Assembly (NCBI GenBank): GCA_963705505.1
Contig: CAVPJU010000006.1
Span: forward strand, 64,001 to 128,000
Direction: 5' to 3'
From: an uncultured bacterium
GTDB lineage: Bacteria; Desulfobacterota_D; UBA1144; Nemesobacterales; UBA2774
DNA length: 64,000 bases
The notes beneath the pieces were generated by a model. That model saw nothing but the letters and a program-made list of their open reading frames with translations. It made no database searches and was not told where the DNA came from. Below, piece after piece: positions 2,552 to 38,852 of this stretch. The position numbers and the translations under genes are program-made. How positions within the stretch are numbered: position 1 is the first letter of the stretch; every line of letters starts with the position of its first letter.

Positions 2552-3942
2552 TTATTCGTCTGTAAGTCTGACTCCATGCTCGGGAGTACCATAGCCCTGA
2601 GACAATTGAAACCCTGAATAAGCTTCTTCTCCGTGCTCGCCGAGGTCGATTCCTCCGATTTCTTTTTCGGAAGACACTCTGAGGCCCATTACAGCCTTGA
2701 GGACGGCCAGAATGATCATTGTGCCCACGAACGAGAATACCCAGGTAGCCACGACGCCTACAAACTGTATCCACAACTGCCCGGGATTGCCGTAAAAGAG
2801 GCCGTCGCGCCCGGCGGAATTTACGGCGGTAGTCGCGAATAATCCGGTCGCCAAAGCACCCCACGTCCCGCCTATGCCGTGCACTCCAACTACGTCCAGG
2901 GAATCGTCATAACCGAGCTTCGGTCTCAGGTTGACGGCGAGGAAGCAGAATATTCCGCCGCCGAGCCCGACAATTATTGCCGCCATAGGAGTCACGAAAC
3001 CTGCTGCAGGCGTTATTGCCACGAGACCCGCCACAGCTCCCGAGGCCGCTCCGAGGACGGTGGGCTTGCCCCTGACGATCCATTCATAAATACCCAGCCG
3101 AGAACCGCTGCCGCGGTTGCGGTATTCGTCGTAACAAATGCAGTACTCGCCAGTCCGCTTGCCGCAACCGCGCTTCCGGCGTTAAATCCGAACCAGCCTA
3201 CCCAGAGCAGCGAGGCGCCGATGACACTATAAGGAAGAAAATGAGGCGCCATAGGCTCGCGTCCGTATCCGATCCTCTTTCCGAACATTAGCGCCGCCGC
3301 GAGAGCTGCGGCACCGGAGCTGATATGCACTACGGTTCCGCCCGCGAAATCCAGAGCCCCCATAGCCCCTATCCATCCGCCACCCCACACCCAGTGCGCA
3401 AGCGGATCGTAAATGATTGTTGTCCAGAGAAGGACGAAGACGATGAATGTGCTGAATTTCGCGCGCTCCGCAAAGGATCCCGTGATAAGAGCCACGGTTA
3501 TTACGGCGAACGTCAGCTGATAGACCATGAAAAGGTTATGAGGTATGGTCGTAGCCCATACTGTGGAGGGTTCACCCGTGACCCCGTTTAAACCCAGCCA
3601 ATCGAGACTCCCGATGATATGGGATATATCGGGTCCGAAAGCAAGGGTATAACCTATGATAACCCATTGTATGGAAACCAATGCCGTAATGAAAAAGCTG
3701 TGCATGAAGGTCCCGAGAGCGTTCTTGGAGCGAACCAGGCCTCCGTAAAAAAGGAATAGCCCCGGGATCGTCATCATCAAAACCAAAGCCGAAGATACGA
3801 GCATCCAAGCGGTATCACCCGTATCGATCTTAGGGCCGTCCTGCGCATGGGATAACCCGGGCGCTGACAAACATACTAAAAACACGAATAACGGGTAAAA
3901 GCAAAGCCTTATAATTTAACTCTAGAAGCCAACCTTTCTCAT
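2552..3942 (-). pseudogene. amtB: Ammonium transporter AmtB, frameshifted (probably a sequencing error)
   Basis: ORFs 3013..3885 and 2552..3034 carry Amt motifs (DTAWML, DFAGGTVVH, WVGWFGFNAGS, GLVAITP, DDSLDVVGVHG). Adding one base near 3085 restores WVFxEWIVRGKPT. The ATG with a good Shine-Dalgarno is at 3942. Confidence 0.9.
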
Positions 3943-11187: not shown

Positions 11188-13254
11188 TTGGCAGTGACTG
11201 AAAGCGAAGAAGCAAAAAAAGGGAAGAGGACACAGGACCTCAGGATCGTAGGGTGGCTCTATTCTTTTACGGGACCTCACCGGGCTCTCATGGTCATTGC
11301 CCTCATATTGATGATCCTGAGCGCGCTCCTAGAGCTCGCAGTACCTTACATAACCAAGATCGCGGTCGATAAGTATATCTATCCTTCATGGGGAATCGCC
11401 AATTTCAAAGATAACGAAAGGGATAAGACATTTGAACAATCCATAAGGGACAAATACGCTTCTCTGGTAATACCTCTCGGCGGGAACTCATACCTCGTCG
11501 ATATGTCCGGACTCGATAACGCCGACAGGACCAACCTCGAAAAGCTCGGAATGGTCACGAAAGAGAGATACCTTGTTATAAACCAGAGGGACACCAATGA
11601 GGACAAGCTCGTCAGGCTAAGGGAAATCATAAAAAGGAACGGCGGGCTTTTTAAGAAAGCCGATGATATTTACTATATTGACTATGCCGCTCTCAAGGAG
11701 CTCGGCAGGAACGACCTCCTCATCCTGAGGAGCGACGAAATAAGGGAAGTGATTATCCTTTCGGCTCTGGTATTCGCGTGCCTGACCGGAATCTTTATAT
11801 TCAGCTCGCTCTTTACATACCTGCTCAACTACTCGGGGCATAAAATAATGCATAAGATGAGGACGGACGTATTTTCTCATATATTGAGCCTGCCCCAGTC
11901 TTTTTTCGATAAAAACCCGGTCGGCAGGCTCACGACAAGGGTGACTAACGACATTAACGCCATTAACGAGATGTACACATCCGTAGCCGTCCAGTTCTTT
12001 AAAGACGTTCTTGTGGTCATAGGCGTCTTGGTAGTCATGTTCTATATGAACAGAGAGCTCACTCTCTTCGTCACGCTCTTCACAGTGCTCATGATGTTTT
12101 TCGCGGGCCTTTTCAGGATGAAGCTCAAGACCGTATATAGAGACGTCAGAAGGTCGATCGCCAAGTTAAACGCGTTCGTTCAGGAGAGTGTAAGGGGAAT
12201 CGTACTGATAAAGCTTTACAACAGGGAAATGGAAAATTTTGAAAAATTCAAAGAGACGAACAGGGAGAACTTCAAGGCGAACATGGACCAGCTATGGGTG
12301 TATGCGACCTTCAGACCGTTTATCGAATTCATGAGCGTGTTCACAGTCGCGTTTATACTATGGTACGGAGGACTCAGCGTGCTCAAGCTCGAACTCACAC
12401 TGGGCGCGCTCATCGCGTATCTCTACTACGTGAGAATGCTGTTCCGTCCGATCATGGAGCTCGCGGAAAGGTATAACATATTTCAATCCGCCACGGTCGC
12501 GAGCGAAAACCTTTACGAACTCGTAAACGTGGCACCGGAGCAGAAAGAGGGTATAAGGGAAGCTGTCGTAAAGGGCCAGCTTGAATTTAAAAACGTCTGG
12601 TTCTCATACAACGACAAAGACTGGGTCCTCAGAGACGTATCTTTTGCGATAGAGCCCGGAGAGACCGTGGCGCTAGTCGGGCTTACGGGATCGGGCAAGA
12701 CAACGATCGTCAATCTGATACTCAAATTCTATGACGCGCAGAGGGGACAGATACTGTTCGACGGCACTGACATAAGGGAGATCAGCACCGAGTTCCTGAG
12801 AGGGAACATCTCTGCTGTATTCCAGGACCTCTTCTTGTTCGGTAAGAACATATCCGATTCCGAAGACGACGGCTTCTCGAAGGCGATACAGATAGACCAG
12901 ATAAAGACTAACGGGAATACTATATCTTCAGGGGAAAAGCAGCTCGTCTCACTGGGACAGGCGTTTTCCAAAAGCTCGAAATTCCTTATACTCGACGAAG
13001 CGACTTCGAATATAGACGCCAGGATCGAAAGGAATATTCAGAAGGCGCTCAGGAACGAAGCGCGGGACCAGACTACGCTGATTATCGCTCACAGGCTCTC
13101 GAACGTAAGACACGCCGACAGGATCATGGTTATACATAAGGGCGAGATTTCAGAAACGGGCACGCATTCGAGCCTTCTTTCAAAAAAGGGGATATATTAC
13201 AACCTCTACGAGCTGCAAAACGAGATACAACGCTTTTCCCTGTTATCGGACTAG
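11188..13254 (+). CDS. ABC exporter half-transporter (MdlB-like) with a large loop insertion and degenerate NBD
   Basis: FFDKNPVGRLTTRVTND, Walker A GLTGSGKT, signature ISSGE, Walker B LILDE, IAHRLS. Confidence 0.92.
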   Translation: MAVTESEEAKKGKRTQDLRIVGWLYSFTGPHRALMVIALILMILSALLELAVPYITKIAVDKYIYPSWGIANFKDNERDKTFEQSIRDKYASLVIPLGGNSYLVDMSGLDNADRTNLEKLGMVTKERYLVINQRDTNEDKLVRLREIIKRNGGLFKKADDIYYIDYAALKELGRNDLLILRSDEIREVIILSALVFACLTGIFIFSSLFTYLLNYSGHKIMHKMRTDVFSHILSLPQSFFDKNPVGRLTTRVTNDINAINEMYTSVAVQFFKDVLVVIGVLVVMFYMNRELTLFVTLFTVLMMFFAGLFRMKLKTVYRDVRRSIAKLNAFVQESVRGIVLIKLYNREMENFEKFKETNRENFKANMDQLWVYATFRPFIEFMSVFTVAFILWYGGLSVLKLELTLGALIAYLYYVRMLFRPIMELAERYNIFQSATVASENLYELVNVAPEQKEGIREAVVKGQLEFKNVWFSYNDKDWVLRDVSFAIEPGETVALVGLTGSGKTTIVNLILKFYDAQRGQILFDGTDIREISTEFLRGNISAVFQDLFLFGKNISDSEDDGFSKAIQIDQIKTNGNTISSGEKQLVSLGQAFSKSSKFLILDEATSNIDARIERNIQKALRNEARDQTTLIIAHRLSNVRHADRIMVIHKGEISETGTHSSLLSKKGIYYNLYELQNEIQRFSLLSD

Positions 13255-13274: not shown

Positions 13275-14483
13275 ATGGACACCATGGAATTTATCTCCTT
13301 AGAAGAACAAACGGAACAAGTCGCGGCATATCTGAGAAGAAGGGAGGACTTCACGGGGCACGACCTCGGTATAGTCGTCTCCCCATACCGCATCTCCCCC
13401 CTCGGAGCGCACATAGACCACCAGGGCGGACCCGTGCTGGGGATGACAATCGACGCCAGAACGCTCCTCGCATTCATACCGAATAATGAGAAAAAAGTCC
13501 GCCTATACAGCATGAATTACCCCGGAGTCGCCGAATTCGCCATCGACAATGTCAAGACCCCGGCGAGGGACGACTGGGGAAGATATGCGATGGGGGCTGC
13601 GAAGGTGATGAACGATCTTGGCGGCGTAGAGACGGGGTTTACGGGCGCTCTTTACGGGACACTGCCCGCCTGCGGGCTCAGCTCCTCCGCATCCTCGGGG
13701 CTCGCCTGCCTGAGGGCGCTCGCGTTCGTTAACCGTATCAAACTATCGCCCGGGGACTACGTCGAGCTCGACCGGAGGATAGAGAACGATTATTTGAAGC
13801 TCTCAAACGGCATCCTCGACCAGTCATCGATCGTCTACGGTAAAAAAGACAATCTTATATACATCGATACGAACACCGGGAATACGGCCGGGTATCCGAG
13901 ACCGGAAAGATCCGAAGCGTTCAGGATCATGATCGCCTACTCGGGCATACCGCGCGAGCTCACCTCCTCCGGGTTTAATACGCGGGTCGAGGAATGCAGA
14001 AAGGCTGCCGGGCTGCTCGGCATAATGGGAGGGCTGAGGTCGGCAAAAACGCTCTCTTACGTACCTGAGAAGGTGTACCGGGAAAAATCGGAAAAGCTTC
14101 CCGATGAGCTCAGAAGGAGGGCGGTCCATTATTTTACGGAAGTCGAGCGTGTAACCATGGGAGTAGCCGCCTGGAAGATCGGCGACATGGAAACTTTCGG
14201 AAAGCTCATGAACGAATCGTGCGAGAGCTCGTTCGTGAATTACGAAGTCGGAAGCCCCGAGCTCATATACCTCCAGAAAATTGTAAGCTCGACCGGAGGG
14301 GTTTACGGGAGCAGACTGAACGGCGGTGGCTACGGGGGCTCGCTGACCGCATTCGTAAGGAAAGATTTCTCCCGCGAATCCGCAGAGGGGATATTAGAAC
14401 AGTACACGAACGCGTACCCGCAGCTCACAGAGAGCGCCCGGGTATATTTTGCGGAACCCGACGACGGGCTAAGGCTATTATGA
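13275..14483 (+). CDS. GHMP sugar kinase, galacturonokinase (GalAK)-like
   Basis: PYRISPLGAHIDHQGG, GLSSSAS, IENDYLKLSNGILDQ, GSRLNGGGYGG. Confidence 0.85.
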   Translation: MDTMEFISLEEQTEQVAAYLRRREDFTGHDLGIVVSPYRISPLGAHIDHQGGPVLGMTIDARTLLAFIPNNEKKVRLYSMNYPGVAEFAIDNVKTPARDDWGRYAMGAAKVMNDLGGVETGFTGALYGTLPACGLSSSASSGLACLRALAFVNRIKLSPGDYVELDRRIENDYLKLSNGILDQSSIVYGKKDNLIYIDTNTGNTAGYPRPERSEAFRIMIAYSGIPRELTSSGFNTRVEECRKAAGLLGIMGGLRSAKTLSYVPEKVYREKSEKLPDELRRRAVHYFTEVERVTMGVAAWKIGDMETFGKLMNESCESSFVNYEVGSPELIYLQKIVSSTGGVYGSRLNGGGYGGSLTAFVRKDFSRESAEGILEQYTNAYPQLTESARVYFAEPDDGLRLL

Positions 14484-15256
14484 TAGCGATCCTATTATGC
14501 GCCGGCTTTGCCACGAGGATGGAGCCTCTTACAAAAGATACACCGAAGGCCCTGCTGGAAGTCGGGGGGAAACCCGTCATCGACCACTTAATCGGGCAAA
14601 TCCTGGAGCTAAGCAATTTGGATTCGATCTACATCGTGACGAACGACCGCTTCTTCAAACACTTTCTTGACTGGGGTGAAAGGAGCGAGGGGGCGATAAC
14701 GGAAAGAGGGATAAGCCTTCACATATATAATGACGGCGTCGAAAGCCCTGAAAGAAGACTTGGCGCTGCGGGCGATCTGGGATTCATGGTGAGCTCCCTC
14801 CCCGAAAACAAAGGGGCGCTCGTCGCGGCGGGAGACAATATCTTTCGCTTCCCGCTCAAGCCCTACTGGGAAATATTCATGAGGGAAGATAAAAGCTATG
14901 TGCTCGCACTCAAAACTCAAGACACGGAAAAGCTCAGAAGGACCGGAGTGCTCGAGCTTGGTCAGGATGACCGCGTAGCGGCTTTTCATGAAAAGCCCGA
15001 GAACCCCCCATCGAGCTTTGCCTGCCCTGCCCTTTATTTTCTTAAACCCCGCTCGCTCGATCTGGTTCATGAGTATCTGTCGTCACCCGATGCCAGAGAC
15101 GAAATCGGATATTTCATATCATACCTTGCCAAGCATGACGTTATACATGCATTCCGGGTCGAGGGGGAGGCTATAGACATAGGGACGATAGAGTCCTACG
15201 AGAGAGCTAAAAAAATCCTGTCCGAAGAGCCGGTCATATGTAGAGAAAGAAAGTAA
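14480..15256 (+). CDS. Sugar-phosphate nucleotidyltransferase
   Basis: MIAILLCAGFATRMEPLTKDTPKALL, AGDN, FHEKP, DIGT. ATGA overlap with the kinase stop places the start at 14480 rather than 14219. Confidence 0.9.
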   Translation: MIAILLCAGFATRMEPLTKDTPKALLEVGGKPVIDHLIGQILELSNLDSIYIVTNDRFFKHFLDWGERSEGAITERGISLHIYNDGVESPERRLGAAGDLGFMVSSLPENKGALVAAGDNIFRFPLKPYWEIFMREDKSYVLALKTQDTEKLRRTGVLELGQDDRVAAFHEKPENPPSSFACPALYFLKPRSLDLVHEYLSSPDARDEIGYFISYLAKHDVIHAFRVEGEAIDIGTIESYERAKKILSEEPVICRERK

Positions 15257-26255: not shown

Positions 26256-26990
26256 CTAAAGCCAGGGAGCGGCCGCCTTATCGACGTACCATTCGAGCAT
26301 GCCGTCTCCCGGGTGAACCATGGACGCGGGATACGGAAGCGGCTCCGTGGTCTTTTGCAGTATCTCCTTGAGTATCTTCTCCTTCCCCTCACCAGCTACG
26401 AGGAACGAAACCCTCTTTCCGCTGTCGAGAACCGGAAAAGTAACGCTCACCCTCTTCTGCCCGGTCTGCGGATGTGTCGCGACGACGCATATCTTCTCTT
26501 TCTCTTTCAATGTTGGCGCGCCGGGGAATAACGAAGCGGTGTGCCCGTCTTCGCCCATGCCGAGGAATATCCAGTCAAACCGGGGAAAGCCGTTTCCGCC
26601 TGACGGAACGTTGTCTTTTATCTCCTTCCCGTAACGAGCCGCCTCTTCATCGGGCGGGTTTTCACCAAGTACGCGGTGGATATTGGCCGGAGGGATTTTG
26701 ATATGGGACAGGAGCGCGAGGTTAGTCATTTTATAATTGCTCTCGTCGTTATCGGGAGGGACGCACCGTTCATCGCCCCAGAAAAAAACAACCTTGTCCC
26801 AGGGCAGACTGTCGCGGTAAGGAGGCGCGGCAAGTATTTCAAAAAAGGCTTTCGGGGTATGTCCGCCGGAGAGCGCGACTTGAAGAACCTCCCCACCGGA
26901 GGCTTTCTCCCGCAAGGCTTTCTTAAAATCCTCTGCAAGGCGCTTCGCCAGTCCGCTTATATCATCGAAGAGATAAACTTCCTTTTTCAT
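26256..26990 (-). CDS. pgl: 6-phosphogluconolactonase
   Basis: LSGGHTP, WGDERCVP, SNY, LGMGEDGHTASLFP. Confidence 0.96.
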   Translation of the reverse strand: MKKEVYLFDDISGLAKRLAEDFKKALREKASGGEVLQVALSGGHTPKAFFEILAAPPYRDSLPWDKVVFFWGDERCVPPDNDESNYKMTNLALLSHIKIPPANIHRVLGENPPDEEAARYGKEIKDNVPSGGNGFPRFDWIFLGMGEDGHTASLFPGAPTLKEKEKICVVATHPQTGQKRVSVTFPVLDSGKRVSFLVAGEGKEKILKEILQKTTEPLPYPASMVHPGDGMLEWYVDKAAAPWL

Positions 26991-27029
26991 TTTATCTTCC
27001 TCTATTCACGACAACTAACCCACTCGTCC

Positions 27030-28568
27030 CTATTTCAGCTCGTAAAAATCCCCGTCCGTGGTCAGATGGTCGGACGGATACCTCCAGTCCTCATCGGGAG
27101 AATCGAAGATGTGCCTCGCCTCCGGGGGCCCCCACGTACCGGCTGGATAGCCGAAAAGCTTTATTTCCGGGTCATCCTCCCACGCAGTGAGTATCGGGTC
27201 GACGAACTTCCAGCACGCCTCCACGGCGTCCGCGCGGGCGTAATGAGTGGCATCGCCCATGATGCAGTCGAGTATCAGGCGCTCGTACGCTTCGGGGATG
27301 TAGGCGTCGGCAAGCTCGGAATAATGGAAGTCCATCCCCACTTCTTCTATATCGAACCCGGCGCCGGGCTTCTTCATACCGAACCTGAGCAGTATCCCCT
27401 CGTCCGGCTGTATCCGTATTATGAGCTGGTTAGGCTTGGCGGAGCACAGCTCCTCCTGCGTGAAAAGATGGTGCGGCGTCTTCTTGAATTCTATGACGAC
27501 CTCGCTCACGCGGGAGGGCAGGCATTTTCCTGTCCGGAGGTAAAAGGGCACGCCGCCCCACCTCCAGTTATCGATATAAAGCTTGAGCGCAACGAAAGTC
27601 TCCGTCATCGAATCGTGGGCTACGTCTTTTTCCTGCCTGTATCCGAGCACCTTCTTGCCGTTGATCACCGACTCCGTGTACTGCCCCCTCACGGCGTACC
27701 TGTCAACGTCCTCGGGCTTGATGGGTCTCAGAGACTGAAATATTTTGATGGACTCATTACGGACATCGGTTGCGTCGAAGAATGACGGGGGCTCTATCGT
27801 GACTGTGCCCAAAACTTGCAGAAGATGGTTCTGAATCATGTCCCTGAGCGCGCCGTAGTGGTCGTAATACCCTCCCCGCTCCTCGACTCCGATCGTTTCT
27901 GCTGCCGTGATCTCGACGCGGCTTACGTAATTCCTGTTCCAGAGAGGCTCGAAAATGCCGTTTGAGAACCTCAATGCGAAAATGTCCTGCACGGTCTCCT
28001 TACCGAGATAATGGTCGATCCTATATATCTGGTCTTCCTTGAAGATCCTCTGCAGGTCGTGATTTAGAGCCTGCGCGGACTGCAGGTCCCTGCCGAACGG
28101 TTTTTCAACGATTATCCGTCTCCAGGAGGAGCCTTTGCCTTCCTTATCGAGCCCTTTTTTACCGAGGTTCTTTGCGATAGCCGCGTATAAGCTCGGCGAG
28201 GTGGACAGATAGAAGATATAATTGCCGCCCGTTTTCTCGGCGGCATCGACTTTGGAGAGCTTATCCTTGAGATCGTCGTAGTGGTTGACATCGGTCGCGT
28301 CCATAGCTTGATAGTAAATATGCTTTGAAAAGGGGTCCAGCTGCTTCTGCTCCGATTTTTTGATACCGGCGTACGTTACGATGTCTTCAATAATTTTTTT
28401 CCTGTACGCATCGTCGGTGAAAGGCGATCTGCTCGTGCCCAGTACGGCGAAATTTTTGGGAAGGAGCCCCTGTCTGAAAAGGGCGTAAAGAGCGGGCATG
28501 AGCTTACGCTTGGTCAGATCCCCGGACGCCCCGAAAATCGCGATTATACAACCGTTCTCCTGTGCCAT
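27030..28568 (-). CDS. zwf: Glucose-6-phosphate 1-dehydrogenase
   Basis: GASGDLTKRK, EKPFG, RIDHYLGKE, YLRTGK. Confidence 0.98.
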   Translation of the reverse strand: MAQENGCIIAIFGASGDLTKRKLMPALYALFRQGLLPKNFAVLGTSRSPFTDDAYRKKIIEDIVTYAGIKKSEQKQLDPFSKHIYYQAMDATDVNHYDDLKDKLSKVDAAEKTGGNYIFYLSTSPSLYAAIAKNLGKKGLDKEGKGSSWRRIIVEKPFGRDLQSAQALNHDLQRIFKEDQIYRIDHYLGKETVQDIFALRFSNGIFEPLWNRNYVSRVEITAAETIGVEERGGYYDHYGALRDMIQNHLLQVLGTVTIEPPSFFDATDVRNESIKIFQSLRPIKPEDVDRYAVRGQYTESVINGKKVLGYRQEKDVAHDSMTETFVALKLYIDNWRWGGVPFYLRTGKCLPSRVSEVVIEFKKTPHHLFTQEELCSAKPNQLIIRIQPDEGILLRFGMKKPGAGFDIEEVGMDFHYSELADAYIPEAYERLILDCIMGDATHYARADAVEACWKFVDPILTAWEDDPEIKLFGYPAGTWGPPEARHIFDSPDEDWRYPSDHLTTDGDFYELK

Positions 28569-28628
28569 CTTGCTTTCCTCTCGATCTAATTCGATTTTGT
28601 TATTGATCAGCCGATGTGAAATCCTCTC

Positions 28629-29534
28629 CTACTTACTATCCTTTTTCTTAACCGCGTGCCCGCCGAACTGGTTCCTGAGCGCGGCAATGGTCTTCATGGC
28701 GAAGGAATCCGTATCCCTCGATTGAATCCTCGCCAGAAGCGACGCGGTGATTATCGGCGCCGGGACGTTCTGATGAAGCGCAGCCTCGACGGTCCAGCGT
28801 CCCTCGCCGCTGTCCCATACATAGGGCTCGAGGTCAGATAGCGTTGGGTCGGCTTTGAATACGCGCTCTGCCAGATCGAGAAGCCAGGAGCGTATAACGC
28901 TACCGTGCTTCCATACCCTGCTTACGGCGCGGAGGTCCAGGTTGAACGGCGAGGTGTGAAGCACGGCAAAGCCTTCGGCATAAGCCTGAAGCAACCCGTA
29001 TTCGATCCCGTTGTGGACCATCTTCACATAGTGGCCCGAGCCTACCGGGCCGCAGTAGAGATAGCCGTACTTAGGCGCAAGGGTCTTGAAAATGGGCTCG
29101 ACGTAATCACATGCGGCTTTATCCCCGCCGTACATGAGGCAATACCCCTCTTTCAATCCCCATATACCGCCGCTGGTTCCGCAGTCTATGAAATGGATCC
29201 CCGTCGGCTCAAGCGCTTTTGCCCTTTTCTGTGAGTCCTGCCATTCGGAGTTCCCGCCGTCTATTATGATGTCTCCCTTCTTGAGATACTTTTTGAGCTC
29301 TCTTATGTTCTGGTCGACGGGCTTGCCCGAAGGGACCATGAGCCACACGACCCTGGGTTTGGGGAGCTTCTTTACGAGGTCTTCAATGGTGTCCGAGGGT
29401 ATCGCCCCCTTCTTCGCATACTCCTTGACCGGGTCTGGGGTCAAGTTCCAGACGACGACCTCGTGACCGTCTAGGAGAAGACGCTCCGTCATGTTCCCAC
29501 CCATCTTTCCGAGTCCTATCATTGCTATCTTCAT
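28629..29534 (-). CDS. gnd: Decarboxylating 6-phosphogluconate dehydrogenase, short type
   Basis: GLGKMG, IDGGNS, KMVHNGIEY, SGEGRWT, RNQFGGH. Confidence 0.96.
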   Translation of the reverse strand: MKIAMIGLGKMGGNMTERLLLDGHEVVVWNLTPDPVKEYAKKGAIPSDTIEDLVKKLPKPRVVWLMVPSGKPVDQNIRELKKYLKKGDIIIDGGNSEWQDSQKRAKALEPTGIHFIDCGTSGGIWGLKEGYCLMYGGDKAACDYVEPIFKTLAPKYGYLYCGPVGSGHYVKMVHNGIEYGLLQAYAEGFAVLHTSPFNLDLRAVSRVWKHGSVIRSWLLDLAERVFKADPTLSDLEPYVWDSGEGRWTVEAALHQNVPAPIITASLLARIQSRDTDSFAMKTIAALRNQFGGHAVKKKDSK

Positions 29535-29609
29535 TACTCCCTCCTGAAATATTTTTGTATTTTCTGATTAATATTAATTCCGTTTCTCAAATCGTAACAT
29601 CAACAACTC

Positions 29610-30266
29610 TCACTGTACACTGTCGAGCAGGGCTTTTATGTTATCCCGCACGGTACCCTTATCGTTATAGACGCTCGATCCGGCGACCAGGACCGACGCG
29701 CCTGCGCGGACGATCTCATGCACATTGCCGATATCTATACCGCCGTCGACCCCTATCGGGACATCGAGCCCCTTTCTATCGAGCAATTCTTTTAACGCAC
29801 GTATCTTATCGAGCTGGCTCCATATGAATTTCTGTCCGCCGAAACCCGGATTGACGCCCATGACCTGGACAAAATCCGCAAGCTCGAGGACCTCTCCGAT
29901 AGCGGAGGGAGGGGTCGCGGGATTGAGAGTTACGCCCGATTGTATCCCCAGCTCCCTTATAGATTCCAGCACGCGGTGGAGGTGGTAGCACACCTCCTGA
30001 TGGACGATGATGCGGTCGGCTCCCGATTGAGCGAATAGATTTATGTATTTCTCAGGCTCGACGATCATAAGATGTACGTCCAGCTTCAATTTCACGAGCG
30101 GTCTTATGGCAGCGACGACTCCGGGGCCGAAGTTAATATTCGGGACGAAACGTCCGTCCATCACGTCTATCTGAATCCACGTTACGCCCGCGTCCTCGGC
30201 TTCCCTCACTGCCTCGCCTAACTTTGTAAAGTCAGCGGATAAAATCGAAGGCTCGATAATTACCAT
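29610..30266 (-). CDS. rpe: Ribulose-phosphate 3-epimerase
   Basis: PSILSADF, DVMDGRFVPN, DVHLMI, NPGFGGQ, VDGGI. Confidence 0.97.
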   Translation of the reverse strand: MVIIEPSILSADFTKLGEAVREAEDAGVTWIQIDVMDGRFVPNINFGPGVVAAIRPLVKLKLDVHLMIVEPEKYINLFAQSGADRIIVHQEVCYHLHRVLESIRELGIQSGVTLNPATPPSAIGEVLELADFVQVMGVNPGFGGQKFIWSQLDKIRALKELLDRKGLDVPIGVDGGIDIGNVHEIVRAGASVLVAGSSVYNDKGTVRDNIKALLDSVQ

Positions 30267-30304
30267 GATTCTCCACTCAGCAAGAGCTTTTTGTTCCGGG
30301 GCCC

Positions 30305-31030
30305 CTAAGAATCCTTACGCTTCTGATACCTTATCCCGTGCGAAGTCGCGACGATGACCTCGCTCGCCGTCCCTATGAACAGACCGTACTCCGCTATCCC
30401 CGCTTTCTGTCCGAGCTTGAAAGCAAGCTCATTAAGATCACGGATGGGTCCGAACTTACCGTCAATTATATAGTTATTCTGGTCTGTGGTGTAAGGAGAT
30501 CCGTTCTCCTTCATACGTAAAACTGCCTCAGCGCCCAGGGACGTGAGGAAATTCGCAACCGGCTTCCAGGCAAACGGGATCACCTCTATAGGCACGGGGA
30601 AGTGAGTGCCCAGCACAGGGGAAAGCTTGCTCTCATCCACGATCATCACGTTGCGCCTGCTCGACTGGGCGAGAACCTTCTCCCGGAGAAGCGCGCCGCC
30701 CCCGCCCTTTATCAGATTGAGGTCGGGATCGACCTCGTCCGCTCCGTCTATCGTGAGGTCTATTTCCTGTCTCTCGTCAAACGAGGTCACGGGAATGCCG
30801 AGCTCTTGAGCCCTTTTTTCAGTCTCCCGGGAACTCGGAATTCCGATAATATCTTTGAGCCTTCCGTCTTTCAGCCTCGCGGCTATCTCTTCAAGCGCGT
30901 ACCTGGCCGTGGTCCCCGTGCCCAGCCCGAGCACCATTCCCGGGCGGATGAGGTCGACCGAGCTTATGCCAGCCTCTTTTTTCAGCCTATCCTGAAGCTT
31001 TTTCTGATCCGGAGTGGGAGAATCGCTCAA
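30305..31030 (-). CDS. rpiA: Ribose-5-phosphate isomerase A
   Basis: GLGTGTT, DGADEVD, IKGGGGALLREK. Confidence 0.97.
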   Translation of the reverse strand: MSDSPTPDQKKLQDRLKKEAGISSVDLIRPGMVLGLGTGTTARYALEEIAARLKDGRLKDIIGIPSSRETEKRAQELGIPVTSFDERQEIDLTIDGADEVDPDLNLIKGGGGALLREKVLAQSSRRNVMIVDESKLSPVLGTHFPVPIEVIPFAWKPVANFLTSLGAEAVLRMKENGSPYTTDQNNYIIDGKFGPIRDLNELAFKLGQKAGIAEYGLFIGTASEVIVATSHGIRYQKRKDS

Positions 31031-31782
31031 CCGGCTTTCTCCTTATGTGAATTGAGGTTGCTAATAAACCCTTTGGCCGCATCAAGGAGCTCCACCGGGT
31101 CATCAACTATACGAAGGAGCGCCGATGGCGGAAGCGCGTGAACACCCTCTCTCGTGAAATCGGTCGTGACGGCGATACAGTTCATGTCCGCACCAAGCGC
31201 CGCCTTCACCCCCGAAGCCGAATCTTCGATAACCAGGCTATCGTGATGGGTGACTTTCAGCTCATTCGCAAGCAGTACGTATATCTCGGGATCGGGCTTT
31301 CCGTGCTCGACGTCCTGAATCGTGGCGATGAAATCGAACTCGGACCTTATACCGAGAACATCAAGCACGCGGTCAGCTTCCTCTCTGTGAGACATCGTGC
31401 CGAGCCCCGTGGGGTACCTTTCGTCCCGCGCCCATTTGAGAAGCCCAAGATTGTAGGGGCAGAGGTGCTCCTTTAATATTTCCGGGTCGGATATCATTTT
31501 GAAATACGTGTCGAGCCTTATATCGACGTAAGCCTGCCACGGCGTACGCACACGGAATTCCTTCATTCTCGCCCTTGCCGCGCTCTCGAGGTTAAACCTT
31601 TTGAGAAGCCCTTCGGCAACCTCTTTACGGGAGAGCCCGACGTAGTCCTTGAATGCTTCTATTACTTCGTCTTCGGTCAATGATTTATCGAGCTCGACCG
31701 CAGCCCTGGCGTAGGACTTCGCCTTGAGTACCTCCGTCTGCACGAGCGTGCCGTCAAGATCGAATATCAGCGCCTTAATCAC
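31027..31782 (-). CDS. HAD-family phosphatase (beta-PGM-like)
   Basis: IFDLDGTL, GKPDPEIY, IEDSASG. Confidence 0.9.
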   Translation of the reverse strand: MIKALIFDLDGTLVQTEVLKAKSYARAAVELDKSLTEDEVIEAFKDYVGLSRKEVAEGLLKRFNLESAARARMKEFRVRTPWQAYVDIRLDTYFKMISDPEILKEHLCPYNLGLLKWARDERYPTGLGTMSHREEADRVLDVLGIRSEFDFIATIQDVEHGKPDPEIYVLLANELKVTHHDSLVIEDSASGVKAALGADMNCIAVTTDFTREGVHALPPSALLRIVDDPVELLDAAKGFISNLNSHKEKAG

Positions 31783-31793
31783 TTTTCCTTCTG

Positions 31794-34619
31794 TCAGAGA
31801 ATTTTTGCAAGCCTCTTTATGCCGCTTATCACGTCTTCGCCCAGATGAAACGTTATGACCTTGCGTTTCCCGTCCAGGAGCGCCTGACGGTCGCCGAGGG
31901 CCTCCGCATCTATGAATACTCCGAACGTTATGGACGAGGCCTTCTTGCCGGGCTCATCGGGAATAGGGATGTCCTCAGGCTTATCGGAGGTGAACTGAAT
32001 AAAAAGACCGTTCCCCGCGTCCCCCTTGTGGAGCTGCCCGGTGGAATGTAGGAACCTCGGCCCGAACCCTACGGTCGTGGCCAGACGGTACTGCCTCTGG
32101 ACTTTGTTCCTCAGTTTCTGGAGCGCGTCGTATGTCTCGTCCGTGGGCTTGACGTATGCCTGGAACGCAACGTAGCTCCTGCCCTTGGATTCGTCCCTGC
32201 CGGGTTTGGCGTAGGAGAGGAACTTTTTAAGTGCCTGCTCGAGGCTCGTAGCCCTGAAATCGGAATAAACCGTTATACCGCTTTCCTTGAGGGTCGGCTT
32301 TATCACGGGGAGCTTGCCCTTTTTCTGATATTCGGCGATCATCTTGCGGGCGAGCACCTTTGCGGCCTCCACGTTCGGCTGGTTGAAGGGATGAATGCCT
32401 ATGATCATCCCCGCTATCGCGATCGCCATCTCCCACCTGAAGAACTCTCCCCCTAAGTCGTAAATATCTTTTAAGTTGATGTGCACTACCGGATGGCCCG
32501 CCTTTTCGAGAGCCTTGACCTGCCTGTCGTACGTATCGTCGTGCGCGAGGCGGAGGTATACGAAGAGCCTGTCGTTCGCGTAAAACTCGGGCTGGGCAAG
32601 GGGTTCCCTGTCGACAGGGAGAATCCCTTTTCCGTCCTTGCCGGTGCTCTCGGCTATGAGCTGCTCGACCCAGGAGCCGAAGCCCTGTATGGGAGGAGAG
32701 GCGACGAGCGTTACCTTGTCGTGACCCGCCTTGGCGAGCTCGCCGAGTATAGCGCCCAACCATGCGCCCGAGTTGTCCCCGTCGACAGCGGGGTTGCAGC
32801 TTTCGTTGTTATGGAGCATCGTAACGGCTCTCGATAGGAGCAGATTCAGATCGACTCCCTGAAAAGCTGCGGGGGGAATGCCGACGAACGAGAGCGCCGA
32901 ATAGCGTCCGCCGATGTTGGGGTCGTTTAAAAAGGTCTTTCTGAATTTGAGCTCGTTCGCGATCTTCTGAAGTCCGCTCCCCGGGTCCGTGATGGCTATG
33001 AAATGCCGCCCGGCCTCTTTCTTCCCCACCTCTTTTAAAACCTCGTTATAGAAATATTTCATAAACGAAAGAGTCTCGGCGGTGCCTCCTGATTTCGTAG
33101 AGACGATGAACACGGTCTTTGACATATCGAGCCTTCGCCTCTCCGCAAGCACGGCTCCGGGATCGGTGCTGTCCAGGACCGCGACATCGAGATACCCCTT
33201 TTTGACGCCGTAGGTTTCCCGGAGTACCAACGGGGCGAGGCTCGAACCGCCCATCCCGAGGAGGAGGACGTTCTTGTAGCCGTCAGCCCTCACTTCATCC
33301 ACGACTTTTCTGATTCCCGGAAGGGCGTCAACCATGACCTCGGGTATGTGGAGCCAGCCGAGGCGGTTACTTATCTCGGTCGGGTCGTCTTCCCAGACGA
33401 GGTAATCGAAATTCCATATTTTCTGGATGATATTGTTGTCTCTTATGTTCTCGAGAGCCTTATCGACTGCGGGCTGAAATGCGCCTAACGAAGCGGAATA
33501 CGGTTTTTTGCCCGAAAGTATCTGCTCCTTTTTTTCCTCTATGCTCGACATGAGAGTCTTGAAGGAGTCCGCGAATTGATCCACTCCATCCTTGAGCAGC
33601 CGGTTTGTCACCGCCTTTAAATCTATTCCGAGCTTCCCGAGCTTCGCTATATCCTGCTCTGCCTGCTTCACCCCTCTCGTGAGCGTGAGAGCGGCCTTCC
33701 CGTGATCCCTGAAGTTCTTATATGTGGCAGGGGGAACGGTATTTACAGTGTCGGGCCCTATGAGCTCGTCAACGTATAGCGTATCGGAATAAGCGGGGTT
33801 TTTGGTGCTCGTGCTCGCCCAGAGACACCTCTGCACCCTGGCTCCGGCGTCGGCGAGCTTCTTCCAGCGCTTGCCCTTAAACGTGTTTCTGAACTCGTCA
33901 TAGGCGAGCTTTGCGTTCGCGATTGCGATCCTGCCCTCAAGACCTGTTTTACCGATTTTCTCCAGTTCGGGGTCTATGGCAGTATCGACCCTGCTTACGA
34001 AAAAGGACGCGACAGAGGCGACCCTGTCGACCTTGTGCCCTTTGAATACCGAGGGGCCTTCGGCGGCGAGCTTTTCGAGACCCTTTATGTACGCCTCGGA
34101 CACCGCCCTATACTGCTCGAGGCTGAACATCAGTGTTACGTTCACGTTTATACCGGCGCCGATGAGCTCCGTGATCGCGGGTATGCCCGCTTTGGTCGCA
34201 GGGACTTTGATCATCACGTTCGGGCGCCCCAGCGCGACGAAATATCTCCTCGCTTCCTTGATAGTGTTCTTCGTGTCGTTGGCCAGAGTGGGGCTGACCT
34301 CCAGGCTTATAAACCCGTCCCTGCCGTTCGTCTCGTCGTATAGCGGCCTGAACAGATCGGCAGCCATCGCAATGTCCTTTAAAGCGAGCGCCTCGTATAT
34401 CTCGTTTACGGATTTATTCTCCGCTACGAGAGCCTTGAGGTCTTCGTCGTAATCCGAGCTTCCGGCTATAGCTTTTTCGAGGATCGAAGGGTTCGAGGTT
34501 TCTCCTCTCAAGCCCTCGTCTATCAAAGCCTTGAGCTCTCCCGAGGTGATGAAAGACCTCCTGATATAGTCGTACCAGATCGACTGGCCGAGTTTATTTA
34601 GATCCTTGATTCTGGACAT
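31794..34619 (-). CDS. Bifunctional transaldolase / glucose-6-phosphate isomerase fusion
   Basis: N-terminal Tal motifs ([25 protein letters not shown]) and C-terminal PGI motifs (GMGGSS, SKSGGT-like, [24 protein letters not shown]) in one 941-aa ORF. Confidence 0.95.
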
Positions 34620-34692
34620 TGTCTATCTCCCGTTATCAACAAGTTATTCAATTCAAAGGAAACGAATCACGACAACAATTCTTAAATCTACT

Positions 34693-36759
34693 TTATTTTT
34701 TTACGGATTTTTTATTTTTCTTTTTGTCCCCGTACGCAAGAACCTCTTTTGCTTTCGCCACGACGTGGTCGACCGTGAACCCGAACTCGGGGAGGAGGTC
34801 GCCTATCGGAGCGGATTCTCCGAATGTGCTTATGCCTATTACACCGCCCTGGTCGTAGGAACCCACATACCTCCGCCAGCCGAATGTGGAGCCTGCTTCC
34901 ACGGAGACCCTCGCCCGCACGGAGGAGGGGAGGACCTCCTCCCAGTACTCCGCTCCCTGCATCTCGTAAATAGACCAGCAGGGCATGCTTACGACACGCG
35001 CCTTTATCCCCTGTTTTTTGAGCTCCTCGTAGGCACCGAGGCATAACTGGACCTCGGAGCCCGTGCCTATCAGTATTATGTCGGGCTTCGGCTTACTGTC
35101 GGCAAGGATATAAGCGCCCTTCAAAGCGCCTCCGGCAGGGGCGTATACGCTCCTATCGAAGGTGGGGACGTCCTGTCTTGTCAGAATCAACGCGACGGGA
35201 CGGTTTTTCACTTTCATTATGTACTTCCACAATACGCTCAATTCGTTGGCGTCTGCGGGCCTTATCACGTCGAGGTTGGGAATGGCCCGGAGAGACGCCA
35301 GGTGCTCGATAGGCTGATGGGTGGGGCCGTCCTCTCCCAATCCGATACTGTCATGGGTGAATATAAAAATGACTGGATTCTGCATAAGGCAGGCGAGTCT
35401 GAGCGGGGCCCTCATATAATCCGAGAACACGAAATAGGTGGCCGTGTAGGGCCTCAGCTTGCTGAGCGCCATGCCGTTTGCGGCGGCGGCCATGGCGTTC
35501 TCCCGTATTCCGAAGTGAAAGTTCCTGCCGTCGTACACCCCCTTCTCGAAGCTGCCCGCGCCTTCTATGTAGGTTTTTGTCGAAGAGCCGACATCGGCAG
35601 CTCCCCCGAGGAGAAAGGGATACACGGGGACGATAGCATTCAGTATCTTGCTGTTGGCGGAACGCGTCGCGGGGCCCTTCGGGTTTGCGGGAAATACCGG
35701 CAGGCATTTCTCCCACCCCTCGGGCATTTCATGGTTCTGCATCTGGCGGAACTGCTTGGCAAAGTCGGGATATTCGCGTTCATACGAGCTGAATTTCTTA
35801 TTCCATTCGTCTTCGTTAACCGCTCCTTTCCTTATAACCGTCTCTCTATATTGCTTCACCTCTTCAGGCACATAGAATTTCTTGTCGGGGTCCCAGCCGT
35901 AATTTATTTTCGTCTTCCGTATCTCCTCGTCGCCGAGGGGCTCTCCGTGCGCGGCGGAAGTATCCTGTTTATTCGGGCTGCCGTAACCGATATGGCTGTC
36001 GACTATGATAAGGGAAGGCTGCTCGTTCTCCTTGAACGCCCTCTCTATAGCCTCAGCCAGCATCTCGAGGTCGTTCGCATCGCCCACGCGCTGAACGTGC
36101 CAGTTGTATCCCATGAACCTGGCGGCCACGTCTTCGCTGAACGCCAGCGCCGTATGTCCCTCGATGGTTATGTGGTTGTTATCATAAAACCAGATGAGGT
36201 TGCTCAGACCCAGGTGCCCCGCAAGAGAAGCGGCCTCGCCCGATATGCCCTCCATCATGCACCCGTCGCCGTCGATCGCGAATATGTTGTAATTGACGAT
36301 CTCGTGCCCGGGCTTGTTGAAATAAGCAGCGAGCCACCTCTCGGCTATCGCCATACCCACCGATGTGGCGACGCCCTGGCCGAGGGGTCCCGTGGTCGTC
36401 TCGACACCGGGGGCGAGCCCGTACTCGGGGTGACCGGCACACTTGCTGTGGAGCTGTCTGAATGTCTTTATGTCATGGAGCGACAAGTCGTAACCGGTAA
36501 TGTGAAGAAGGCTGTAAAGAAGCATCGATGCATGACCGTTTGAAAGAACGAAGCGGTCACGGTTGGGCCAGTCGGGGTTTTTCGGATTGAATTTCATGAA
36601 CTTATCCCAGATCGTGAACGCAACGGGAGCAAGGGCCATCGGTGTGCCCGGATGACCCGAATTAGCTTTCTGCACCGCGTCCATGGACAGAGTCCTTATG
36701 GTGTTGATTATCAGCTGCTCGAGCTTGTCTCTGTTTATCTTCGGCATCGATTCCATCAT
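34693..36759 (-). CDS. tkt: Transketolase
   Basis: SGHPG, TTGPLGQG, GDGCMMEG, THDSIGLGEDGPTHQP. Confidence 0.98.
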   Translation of the reverse strand: MMESMPKINRDKLEQLIINTIRTLSMDAVQKANSGHPGTPMALAPVAFTIWDKFMKFNPKNPDWPNRDRFVLSNGHASMLLYSLLHITGYDLSLHDIKTFRQLHSKCAGHPEYGLAPGVETTTGPLGQGVATSVGMAIAERWLAAYFNKPGHEIVNYNIFAIDGDGCMMEGISGEAASLAGHLGLSNLIWFYDNNHITIEGHTALAFSEDVAARFMGYNWHVQRVGDANDLEMLAEAIERAFKENEQPSLIIVDSHIGYGSPNKQDTSAAHGEPLGDEEIRKTKINYGWDPDKKFYVPEEVKQYRETVIRKGAVNEDEWNKKFSSYEREYPDFAKQFRQMQNHEMPEGWEKCLPVFPANPKGPATRSANSKILNAIVPVYPFLLGGAADVGSSTKTYIEGAGSFEKGVYDGRNFHFGIRENAMAAAANGMALSKLRPYTATYFVFSDYMRAPLRLACLMQNPVIFIFTHDSIGLGEDGPTHQPIEHLASLRAIPNLDVIRPADANELSVLWKYIMKVKNRPVALILTRQDVPTFDRSVYAPAGGALKGAYILADSKPKPDIILIGTGSEVQLCLGAYEELKKQGIKARVVSMPCWSIYEMQGAEYWEEVLPSSVRARVSVEAGSTFGWRRYVGSYDQGGVIGISTFGESAPIGDLLPEFGFTVDHVVAKAKEVLAYGDKKKNKKSVKK

Positions 36760-37180: not shown

Positions 37181-37951
37181 TTAAAGCTCGGAAGCGAGCG
37201 CGGCGCCGATGATACCCGCGTCGTTAAGCATCTTCGCAGGGACTATCTTGGCTCTAACTTGTATATACGGAAAGAACTTGTCCGACTTTTTGCTGATACC
37301 CCCTCCGATAATTATCAGGTCGGGGGAGAGAAGCTTCTCCATATGCTGTAGATATTTATTCACCCTTTTCCCCCACTTCTTCCAGCTGAGCCCCTCTATC
37401 TCCCTGTGAATCTCGGCCGCCCGCTTCTCCGCATCTTCCCCGTCTATTTCTATATGTCCGAACTCCGTGTTCCGGACGAGATGGCCGTCAACGAAGAGAG
37501 CCGAACCTACTCCCGTCCCCAGGGTCACCATGAGAACGACCCCCCCGCCGTGCAGGTTATATTTTTTCCCGGCGCCGAACTTCATCTCGGCGAGACCCGC
37601 GGAATCCGCATCATTTATGACGGCAGCCCTGCAGGGGGAAATTTTCTCTATCTGGTCCCTGATATTCACCCCTATCCATTTCTTGGACAGGTTCGCAGCC
37701 GTGTAAACCTCACCGCTCTTCATTACGCCGGGGAAACCGCACCCGAGTGCGCCCTCCCATTTCCAGTGGTCGATTATGCCTTTTATAGCCGCGAGCATGC
37801 TTTTAGGGGTCGCCGGATGGGGGGTATCGACGCGGTACCTCTCATCCAGAAGGACTCCCTTCTCGATATCGACGGGGGCGGATTTGATGCCCGTCCCTCC
37901 GATGTCTATTCCGAGTACGGGGGATTTTAATTGAACCGGTTTTTTAGCCAT
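37181..37951 (-). CDS. ppgK: Polyphosphate glucokinase (ROK family)
   Basis: GIDIGGTGIK, TPHPATP, NDAD, TLGTGVGSA, NTEFGH, NDAGIIGAA. Confidence 0.88.
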   Translation of the reverse strand: MAKKPVQLKSPVLGIDIGGTGIKSAPVDIEKGVLLDERYRVDTPHPATPKSMLAAIKGIIDHWKWEGALGCGFPGVMKSGEVYTAANLSKKWIGVNIRDQIEKISPCRAAVINDADSAGLAEMKFGAGKKYNLHGGGVVLMVTLGTGVGSALFVDGHLVRNTEFGHIEIDGEDAEKRAAEIHREIEGLSWKKWGKRVNKYLQHMEKLLSPDLIIIGGGISKKSDKFFPYIQVRAKIVPAKMLNDAGIIGAALASEL

Positions 37952-38137: not shown

Positions 38138-38852
38138 ATGAAAAAAGCGGCTTTGATAACCGGGGGCGGGACGAGATTAGGCAAAGCTATGGCGCTCGCT
38201 CTGGCTGAGCTGGGGTACGACATCGCCTTACACTATAACAGCTCGGAGAATCACGCCAAGAAGACAGCGGAAGAGATAAAAGCCATAGGAAGAAAGTGTG
38301 AGATATTCAAAGCCGACCTGTCTAATACCAAGGGCATTAAACACTTGACGGTGCGGGTATTCCGCGCGTTTCCAAACTGCTCGCTTCTCATAAATAACGC
38401 GTCGATCTTCGAAGACAGAGATTTTATGGAAGTCACAGAGGAATCGTTCGACCGGGAATTCGCTCTCAACTTCAAGGCTCCTTTCTTCCTGTCCCAGGAA
38501 TTCAGCAGGCGGAAGTCAGCGGAAATAATAGTCAACATGCTCGATACGAGGGTTTCCAAAATCGAGCCCGGACCACTTCGTTTACAACCTGAGCAAGAGA
38601 GCGCTCCGCGACTTTACACTCATGGCGGCTAAGGCTCTGGGGCCTAAAATACGTGTCAACGGAATCTGCCCCGGGCCTATGCTCCCCCCGCCGGGCAAAG
38701 ACATGAAATATCTCAAGCGTATATCAAAAGACACGCCCCTCGGAAAACCGGGGCATCCGGACTTCGTAATAACGGGATTAAAATATATAATCGAGAACAC
38801 GTACGTAACCGGAGAATGCCTCTTCATCGACGGGGGTCAGCACCTCGTCTGA
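38138..38852 (+). pseudogene. Pteridine reductase (FolM/PTR1-like SDR), frameshifted (probably a sequencing error)
   Basis: TGGGTRLG, HYNSS, INNAS. Removing one base at about 38567-38571 restores DHFVYNLSK (YxxxK) and joins ORF 38622..38852. Confidence 0.85.

Follow-up and report, generated by a model that had tools for sequence, protein, structure and literature searches.

A galacturonokinase-like kinase coupled to a nucleotidyltransferase in Dadabacteria: a candidate module for the activation of free hexuronic acids

The 64-kb stretch of a Dadabacteria genome analysed here (the window, whose positions are used for all coordinates) carries a galactokinase-related gene, encoding P0001, that overlaps a gene for a sugar-1-phosphate nucleotidyltransferase (NTase), P0002. 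The question raised by this locus is which sugar the two enzymes activate. We propose that kinase and NTase activate a free hexuronic acid in two steps, as one module, a reading to which we give a somewhat better than even chance. On comparative evidence the module is a real and conserved bacterial one, most likely with a hexuronic acid as its substrate. The features on which the argument turns are as follows.

13275..14483, + strand: GHMP sugar-1-kinase P0001, of the Glu-to-Ala 'GAHxDHQ' (galacturonokinase-like) superclade; 402 amino acids (aa) as the longest open reading frame (ORF)
13383..13430, + strand: sugar-binding signature PYRISPLGAHIDHQGG, with Arg39, Ala45 (for the Glu of galactokinase, GalK), His46, Asp48, His49 and Gln50
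13782..13823, + strand: ENDYLKLSNGILDQ, residues 170-183, with the catalytic-base Asp182; neither E170 nor D182 varies across 53 family members
13974..13976, + strand: codon of Phe234, which in alignments falls where a Tyr binds the sugar in GalK and in the plant galacturonokinase (GalAK)-type protein
14322..14342, + strand: GHMP motif III, GGGYGGS, without Arg, against GAGFRG of the plant-containing clade (alignments and trees)
14480..14483, + strand: ATGA overlap of kinase stop and NTase start (NTase ATG at 14480; kinase TGA at 14481-14483)
14480..15256, + strand: sugar-1-phosphate NTase P0002, of the 'type A' kinase-linked family; 258 aa; Pfam NTP_transferase

P0001 belongs to the GHMP/galactokinase superfamily. 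It has the Pfam domains GalKase_gal_bdg (PF10509), GHMP_kinases_N (PF00288) and GHMP_kinases_C (PF08544), all above cut-off, together with R39, D182 and the motif II sequence GLSSSA, and it has the fold, motifs I-III and the catalytic Arg and Asp in common with canonical GalK of the Leloir pathway. Its top solved relatives are galactokinases (P. furiosus GalK, 1s4e, E = 1.6e-40 over residues 34-399; 1pie, E = 1e-38). It differs from canonical GalK, however, in scoring below the equivalog cut-offs, in lacking the Glu and Tyr that contact the sugar and in falling in a separate clade. All five NCBIfam galactokinase equivalogs that matched stayed below cut-off (NF003705, 204.9 against 385; NF003006, 197.5 against 443; TIGR00131, 178.9 against 226.65; NF003472, 156.1 against 499; and NF001816, 98.7 against 509). 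Residues 36-52 of the kinase are SPYRISPLGAHIDHQGG (nucleotides 13380-13430), and in the alignment with solved GalKs GEHTDY pairs with GAHIDH, the GalK Glu with Ala45 and DYN with DHQ. The catalytic Arg39 and Asp182 are kept and the Tyr of S-x-Y-N in GalK is Phe234, which leaves neither the Glu nor the Tyr of the canonical GalK signature (GEHTDY and SxYN). In Lactococcus GalK we take Arg36, Glu42, Asp45, Asp183 and Tyr233 to be the residues that hold the sugar, a numbering that fits the 1pie alignment. Across 53 family members P37, R39, P42, G44, A45, H46, D48, H49, Q50 and D182 are invariant, and the catalytic residues are intact in both the kinase and the NTase. Judged by these models and residues, the kinase is not a canonical galactokinase. 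An earlier note on this DNA had reported replaced GalK motifs and an ATGA overlap with an NTP transferase gene, and both are confirmed in 13275-14483 and 14480-15256. The translation of the kinase probably starts at Met4 (ATG at 13284) because homologues are 399 aa long and align from query residue 3-4, and because Met4 is nearly invariant.

When 1.84 billion representatives were searched exhaustively, 8807 matches passed E <= 0.001 and 657 passed E <= 1e-30. The best 150 of the 8807 matches and the query made up a set of 151 sequences, 110 of which are 340-500 aa long. Among these 110, position 45 is Ala in 85, Glu in 14 (the canonical GalKs) and something else or misaligned in 11; the 85 Ala45 sequences have His49 in 82 cases and Gln50 in 83, and at position 234 they have Tyr (51), Phe (32) or Leu (2). 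Ten representatives were looked up, including P0169 (UniRef100_V9QNR1), a Camellia sinensis protein named galacturonokinase, and P0171, from a streptophyte alga. The query is 39% identical to P0169 over 386 residues, compared with 32% to one canonical bacterial GalK. Plant GalAK (EC 2.7.1.44) is of the same GalK-derived GHMP family and has the same Glu-to-Ala and DHQ signature (PYRICPLGAHIDHQGG in the Camellia protein). The match with plant GalAK motifs claimed earlier stands in part: the Camellia protein does read SPYRICPLGAHIDHQGG and NGILDQ (the Arabidopsis sequence was not seen), but NGILDQ is not diagnostic of GalAK because canonical GalKs carry G-I-(L/M)-D-Q, as in NSGILDQ of Lactococcus GalK. 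Several close homologues are annotated by JGI as 'galacturonokinase' or 'galactokinase/galacturonokinase' and by NCBI as 'galactokinase' or 'galactokinase family protein'.

Two trees were made, both as quick searches without bootstraps, and their deeper forks are partly unresolved. The first (LG+G4) holds 96 rows, after 14 fragmentary or misaligned ones had been dropped (P0123, P0126, P0148, P0194, P0199, P0200, P0214, P0218, P0222, P0223, P0226, P0232, P0236 and P0250). In this tree a single 78-row clade apart from GalK takes in every Ala45 sequence, with a Shimodaira-Hasegawa-like approximate likelihood-ratio test (SH-aLRT) value of 100. The second tree has 134 rows, with locus-derived kinases added and L113 and L115 left out. 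Here the Ala45 superclade takes in 128 of the 134 rows (SH-aLRT 100) and contains three supported groups: a plant-containing clade (56 rows, SH-aLRT 97) whose motif III is almost wholly GFRG, GYRG, GFKG or GFNG; the clade of the query (59 rows, SH-aLRT 99), whose motif III lacks that Arg; and a third clade (7 rows, SH-aLRT 96). The query sits in a subclade of 9 rows from Dadabacteria/Thermodesulfobacteriota (SH-aLRT 98). Membership of the GAHxDHQ superclade is thus given both by the signature P-x-R-x-x-P-x-G-A-H-x-D-H-Q and by clustering apart from GalK, and the phylogeny bears out the earlier claim that this is no canonical GalK.

The description of the kinase as 'plant-type' does not hold in the strict sense. 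In both trees the query lies in the sister clade of the plant-containing one, and it has Phe234 instead of Tyr and GGGYGGS instead of GAGFRG. By its placement and motifs, the kinase is GalAK-like but outside the plant clade, and the two differences are likely to lie at positions of functional weight. For these reasons D-galacturonate (GalA) cannot be assigned over D-glucuronate (GlcA), or over use of both. Phe234 and the missing motif III Arg suggest that the clade of the query differs from the plant enzyme in its preference between the C4 epimers or in how it would bind the carboxylate. In Arabidopsis GalAK the Tyr-to-Phe change equivalent to position 234 reportedly brings a gain of glucuronate use; if correct, the query clade may take GlcA or both epimers. 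As a separate observation, the GalAK-type proteins of plants and of the streptophyte alga fall within a group of bacterial sequences of the GFRG type (the trees are unrooted and carry no topology test), a placement that would fit descent of the plant enzyme from bacteria.

The kinase-NTase pair is widespread in bacteria and is conserved far beyond the Dadabacteria genome. The NTase follows the kinase in 11 of 25 genome loci (L002-L008, L010, L011, L014 and L019) and is absent from seven that have enough sequence (L009, L012, L013 and L015-L018). In other phyla (Thermoanaerobaculia, Sulfomarinibacteraceae, Anaerolinea) an NTP_transferase gene lies directly 3' of the kinase gene in L020, L021, L023 and L024. 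In a scan of metagenomes at least 598 stretches matched; 514 of them proved to be relatives, and the analysis took the best 80. The kinase ORF is intact in 69 of the 80, and 52 could be evaluated because the ORF is fused or is followed by 750 bp or more. An NTase is present in 41 of these 52. It is the next gene in 35, with a 4-bp overlap in 15 of the 35 (taking the longest ORFs); it lies one gene further on in L087 and L100, directly after the kinase match in L115, and is fused in frame to the kinase in L084, L085 and L098. No NTase was seen in the remaining 11 (L057, L061, L073, L097, L104, L108, L110, L119, L121, L122 and L124). The fusions join the kinase to a type B NTase on three independent contigs (L084:325-2214, L085:2510-4375 and L098:981-2840; 619-629 aa). 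L115 was also considered as a fusion and was rejected, its NTase ORF being over-extended and lying 3' of the kinase match. Longer 'fusions' (P0206, P0212, P0217, P0202 and P0220) carry truncated kinase parts and may be read-through or chimeric gene calls, usable as neighbourhood hints only. The repeated pairing with different NTases, together with the natural fusions, suggests that the product of the kinase is the substrate of the NTase.

P0002 is an NTase of the RmlA/GalU fold (Pfam NTP_transferase, PF00483, 7e-27), and CAGFATR, K23, AGDN (D119/N120), E171-K172 and D233 are conserved across 23 members of its family. The NCBIfam matches listed for a named specificity (GalU, RmlA, ManC, GlmU, MurU and others) all fall short of their cut-offs, the best being AglF with 86.1 against 400 bits. 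The nearest solved proteins are RmlA-, GMPPB- and UGPase-like (3hl3 against the family profile, E = 2.5e-24). The NTases found beside the kinases come from at least three lineages, types A, B and C, which are only about 20% identical to one another. Type A proteins are 34-59% identical to P0002, have the motifs L-(C/A)-A-G-(F/Y)-A-T-R and x-(N/D)-D-G-x3-N-x2-R-L-G-A-x2-D-L, keep AGxATR, K23, GDN, EKP and D233 in the family alignment (A2), and partner kinases both with and without the motif III Arg. Types B and C are only about 20% and about 21% identical to P0002, respectively.

We infer that the kinase would phosphorylate GalA and/or GlcA at C1 with ATP, and that the coupled NTase would convert the resulting uronate-1-phosphate and an NTP, probably UTP, to a nucleoside diphosphate (NDP)-uronate for glycan or envelope synthesis. 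Loss of the sugar-binding GalK Glu and the change of DYN to DHQ would adapt the C6 pocket to a carboxylate. Bacteria otherwise make UDP-GlcA and UDP-GalA with UDP-glucose dehydrogenase and a 4-epimerase. Arabidopsis GalAK is said, in work of Yang and colleagues in 2009, to act as a sugar-1-kinase ahead of a pyrophosphorylase, and this two-step logic of plant GalAK and UDP-sugar pyrophosphorylase (USP) is the same as that proposed for the query pair. The partner of plant GalAK is an unlinked broad-range USP of another family, whereas the NTase of the query is small, dedicated and of RmlA fold, and is encoded next door or fused within the family. ScGalK/ScGPUT (for UDP-xylose), AmgK/MurU, Fkp and HddA/HddC are bacterial salvage pairs of a sugar-1-kinase and an NTase, and resemble the query pair in that an anomeric kinase and then an NTase bypass de novo synthesis of the nucleotide sugar. 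They differ in their substrates, and none of them is known to contain a Glu-to-Ala GalAK-type kinase.

Among characterised systems, a glucuronokinase and a short NTase of bacterial type make up one fused protein, zebrafish DrGKUP, that serves UDP-uronate salvage (PMC3938481), and natural kinase-NTase fusions also occur in the query family (L084, L085 and L098). A search with P0002 for longer proteins gave five matches and no eukaryotic glucuronokinase fusion. Arabidopsis GlcAK is of an unrelated GHMP family, whose bacterial occurrence is described as 'a few bacteria' (PMC2823444). No report of a bacterial galacturono- or glucuronokinase of the kinase's family, or of its NTase partner, was found in the searchable literature, outside which most subscription journals lie, and the hits for such bacterial kinases or for uronate-1-phosphate were only plant, animal, chemoenzymatic or metabolomics work. 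The earlier note's statement that no such bacterial route was known to be characterised is to that extent upheld, although the automatic JGI annotation already says 'galacturonokinase'.

Hexuronate genes lie beside relatives from all three major kinase clades. This evidence is guilt by association and has no control for background frequency. One case in the major clade of the query is L055, whose kinase is 47% identical to P0001. Divergently upstream of it are genes for UxaC, a glucuronate isomerase that scores 634.6 bits against a cut-off of 387, for the tagaturonate epimerase UxaE and for a putative hexonate epimerase of the LarA type, and downstream are two for GFO/IolG-like oxidoreductases. 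UxaC is also encoded at L059 (585.9 bits, above cut-off), with a mannonate-oxidoreductase-like SDR, and at L099, which is of the GFRG type (519.6 bits, above cut-off); UxaE is a neighbour at L057. At L021 the order is kinase, NTase, GntR-FCD regulator, UxaE, mannonate-oxidoreductase-like SDR and LarA-type hexonate epimerase. TRAP transporter genes are found at L082 (kinase, NTase, DctP, a DctQ-sized ORF and DctM), at L023 (DctP/Q, with GntR-FCD) and at L126 (a DctP fragment), and P0212 (DctM and kinase) and P0289 (P0002-like NTase and DctP) resemble read-through calls of such neighbours. MFS_2 transporters of the GPH (glycoside-pentoside-hexuronide) family lie 5' of the kinase at L024, L067, L070, L072, L085 and L089. 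A UDP-glucose 6-dehydrogenase gene is upstream at L105 (658.6 bits against a cut-off of 757; TIGR03026 passed), and the same enzyme is part of the fused call P0206. Salvage of a uronate, as first proposed, is therefore supported by the hexuronate clusters of the relatives, and GalA in particular, as against GlcA or both, is not.

The host genome (2.88 Mb, 93.6% complete) has a single GalK-family gene. GalT was not found in this 93.6%-complete genome and the kinase therefore has no Leloir context there. Nor were the uronate isomerase UxaC and the TRAP binding protein DctP of uronate catabolism found in it. Because neither these nor GalT turned up, a catabolic role is unlikely here, and the simplest reading is that uronate is salvaged or recycled into a pool of NDP-uronate to which de novo synthesis can also contribute. 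A search for MIOX gave no match in the genome, and its control was silent too. Five PF00483 NTases are encoded: two ManC-like proteins, GlmU, an inositol-1-phosphate cytidylyltransferase-like protein and P0002; none in the genome scores above the GalU cut-off. The gene for the inositol-1-phosphate cytidylyltransferase-like protein (L039, G000:C3:315516-317617) adjoins one for a CDP-alcohol phosphatidyltransferase-like protein, which is the pattern of di-myo-inositol-phosphate or inositol-lipid synthesis, and an OlsC-like lipid hydroxylase gene comes next.

Several observations weigh against hexuronic acid activation. The first is that the substrate assignment of the bacterial members rests on homology and gene neighbourhood. 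The query clade is without two features of the plant clade, Tyr234 and the Arg of GFRG. The NTase motif, xNDGxxxNxxRLGA, is without the Gln of RmlA/GalU-type enzymes, which usually reads uracil or thymine. The only other pointer to uronates in the genome is a UDP-glucose-dehydrogenase-like gene found elsewhere in it, which passes the broad model only (TIGR03026, 450 against 189.8 bits; TuaD, 504 against 700). A subclade of 20 rows within the major clade of the query is associated with MFS_2, YdjC, PIG-L, a BadF-type ATPase, an NAD-epimerase and a DegT aminotransferase, and may belong to amino or N-acetylated sugar metabolism. Finally, 20 of the 38 kinase-bearing genomes in the phylum have no type A NTase, and in five of these searched with P0002 there was no close substitute (best, 38 bits). 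This shows that the kinase can persist without a type A NTase, and its lone persistence is not fully explained by any of the readings offered here.

The strongest competitor keeps the same salvage by kinase and NTase and changes the sugar, which would be a pentose or 6-deoxy sugar without O6 (L-arabinose, D-xylose or D-fucose) or an amino or N-acetylated sugar acid. We regard this as possible, though on balance unlikely. A site without the Glu would be equally suited to sugars that have no hydroxyl at C6, and the query lacks the Tyr and the motif III Arg of the plant-containing clade. The Solitalea pair ScGalK/ScGPUT is a published precedent, a GalK and a uridylyltransferase that salvage D-xylose to UDP-xylose, and ScGalK is described as a promiscuous galactokinase (PMC11267548). 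Amino sugars are suggested by the neighbourhoods of the one subclade, in which a cluster of MFS_2, YdjC, PIG-L deacetylase, NAD-epimerase, kinase, type B NTase, BadF-type ATPase and a ceramidase-like gene recurs at L024, L065, L069, L070, L075, L076, L078 and L134. Against this, the invariant A45, H49 and Q50 are common to the plant protein named galacturonokinase; relatives with UxaC, UxaE, TRAP and Ugd neighbours are spread over all three major clades, the query's among them; and no pentose genes were seen beside the pair among the examined loci. Activation of a hexuronic acid remains our preferred reading.

A further alternative is raised by the gene directly upstream of the kinase.

11188..13254, + strand: ABCB-type half-transporter, directly 5' of the kinase; 688 aa; Pfam ABC_membrane and ABC_tran

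The gap between this gene and the kinase gene is 20 nucleotides on the same strand and no terminator-like site was found between the ABC, kinase and NTase genes, and the three are probably in one operon. The nearest solved relatives of the transporter are P-gp, TmrAB, TM287/288 and BmrD/YheH (300-370 bits). MsbA gives about 240 bits, and the label 'MsbA' was rejected because ABCB-, TmrAB- and BmrD-type exporters outscore it. The protein has an insert of about 120 aa between transmembrane helices TM1 and TM2 (residues ~60-185), and the BmrD/YheH matches (7m33_D, 8t1p_D) begin at residue 167, past most of the insert. An ABC gene is 5' of the kinase in 19 of the 25 genome loci, including the divergent L010, L011, L014 and L019, whose flanks are otherwise different and which have a second ABC gene upstream (572-575 aa); it is also 5' of the kinase in the metagenome loci L056 and L086. 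A possible partner half-transporter of 573 aa is encoded at a distance in the window, at 47202-48923 (- strand); L010 and L011 have both genes in tandem.

The Dadabacteria kinase might accordingly work mainly with the exporter, the sugar-1-phosphate having a fate other than an NDP-sugar and the NTase being an accessory. We think this improbable. The distribution of the genes in the phylum speaks for it in part. In a survey of 120 genomes (kinase at E <= 1e-60, type A NTase at E <= 1e-25) the kinase was found in 38: 30 of 32 in family f1, the window's own genome, 6 of 15 in f2, 1 of 1 in f5 and 0 of 71 in other families. The type A NTase was found in 19 of the 120. In 18 of these the kinase gene is present as well, in every case next to the NTase gene, and only G014 has the NTase by itself; in f1 the NTase occurs in 10 of 32 genomes. 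The NTase-less genera (L012, L013 and L015-L018) keep the catalytic motifs of the kinase and have in common R282W, E240A and R347A at near-invariant positions, changes that may reflect a functional shift. Outside the Dadabacteria lineage, however, the ABC gene is absent and the NTase is the constant partner, and we know of no pathway that uses free uronate-1-phosphate otherwise than for NDP-uronate. Additionally, within the genus of the query the NTase of L008 (genome G082) has in-frame stops and its kinase carries A45G (GGHIDHQ), and in L009, where the NTase is lost, the kinase is changed at invariant or near-invariant positions (GLGSSA, GIADQ, R347G and G350R), which suggests decay. The module thus appears to be decaying in some close relatives, and the occurrence of kinase changes together with NTase damage or loss fits a coupled function in this genus.

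Finally, a divergent ordinary galactokinase that feeds galactose-1-phosphate to a UDP-sugar pyrophosphorylase (an Isselbacher-type route) is very improbable: although its best named matches are galactokinases, NCBI gives relatives that name and P0002 might be a general UDP-hexose pyrophosphorylase given that no canonical GalU was found, all GalK equivalog models stay below cut-off, the sugar-binding Glu is Ala in 85/85 Ala45-clade rows and Glu in 14/14 canonical ones, the two groups split at an SH-aLRT of 100, and no galactose genes were seen near any family member, nor GalT in the genome.

If activation of hexuronic acids is correct, the pair would supply a missing branch of bacterial hexuronate metabolism beside the isomerase pathway with which it often clusters, and would account for hundreds of genes that now carry the name 'galactokinase'. 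One-pot synthesis of NDP-uronic acids would gain compact enzymes that are coupled or fused by nature, and the plant kinase of pectin salvage would be traced back to bacteria. The clade-level differences (Phe234, the missing motif III Arg, the exporter linkage and the repeated loss of the NTase) mark testable candidate determinants of specificity. A more far-reaching proposal, which is speculative and as a whole unlikely, is that the pair is an ancient and widespread bacterial entry route for hexuronates from which plant GalAK descended; that the Phe234/GG clade takes glucuronate or both C4 epimers and would hold the first glucuronokinase of the GalK lineage; and that in Dadabacteria the route is wired to a BmrCD-like ABC exporter and supplies or recycles an acidic envelope glycoconjugate.

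The other genes of the window are of a different kind. A MarR gene and then an rpoD-like gene lie 3' of the NTase gene, and the rest is housekeeping (ThiC, TsaD, IspH, a pentose-phosphate cluster, ThrRS and others). The pentose-phosphate cluster (26256-36759, - strand) is compact and encodes a 941-aa fused transaldolase-phosphoglucose isomerase, then transketolase. Pfam coverage is partial for an ammonium transporter (3013-3885, - strand; model positions 1-242 of 399), a ROK protein (37181-37951, - strand; 2-162 of 294) and an SDR (38138-38632, + strand; 1-122 of 195), and these three genes may be truncated or frameshifted. SelO (protein adenylyltransferase), at 60479-61949 (- strand), is split over two overlapping ORFs, 60900-61949 and 60479-61021, which points to a frameshift, a pseudogene or an assembly error. 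Lastly, a GT10-family (fucosyltransferase-type) glycosyltransferase is encoded amid housekeeping genes at 57017-57904 (- strand).

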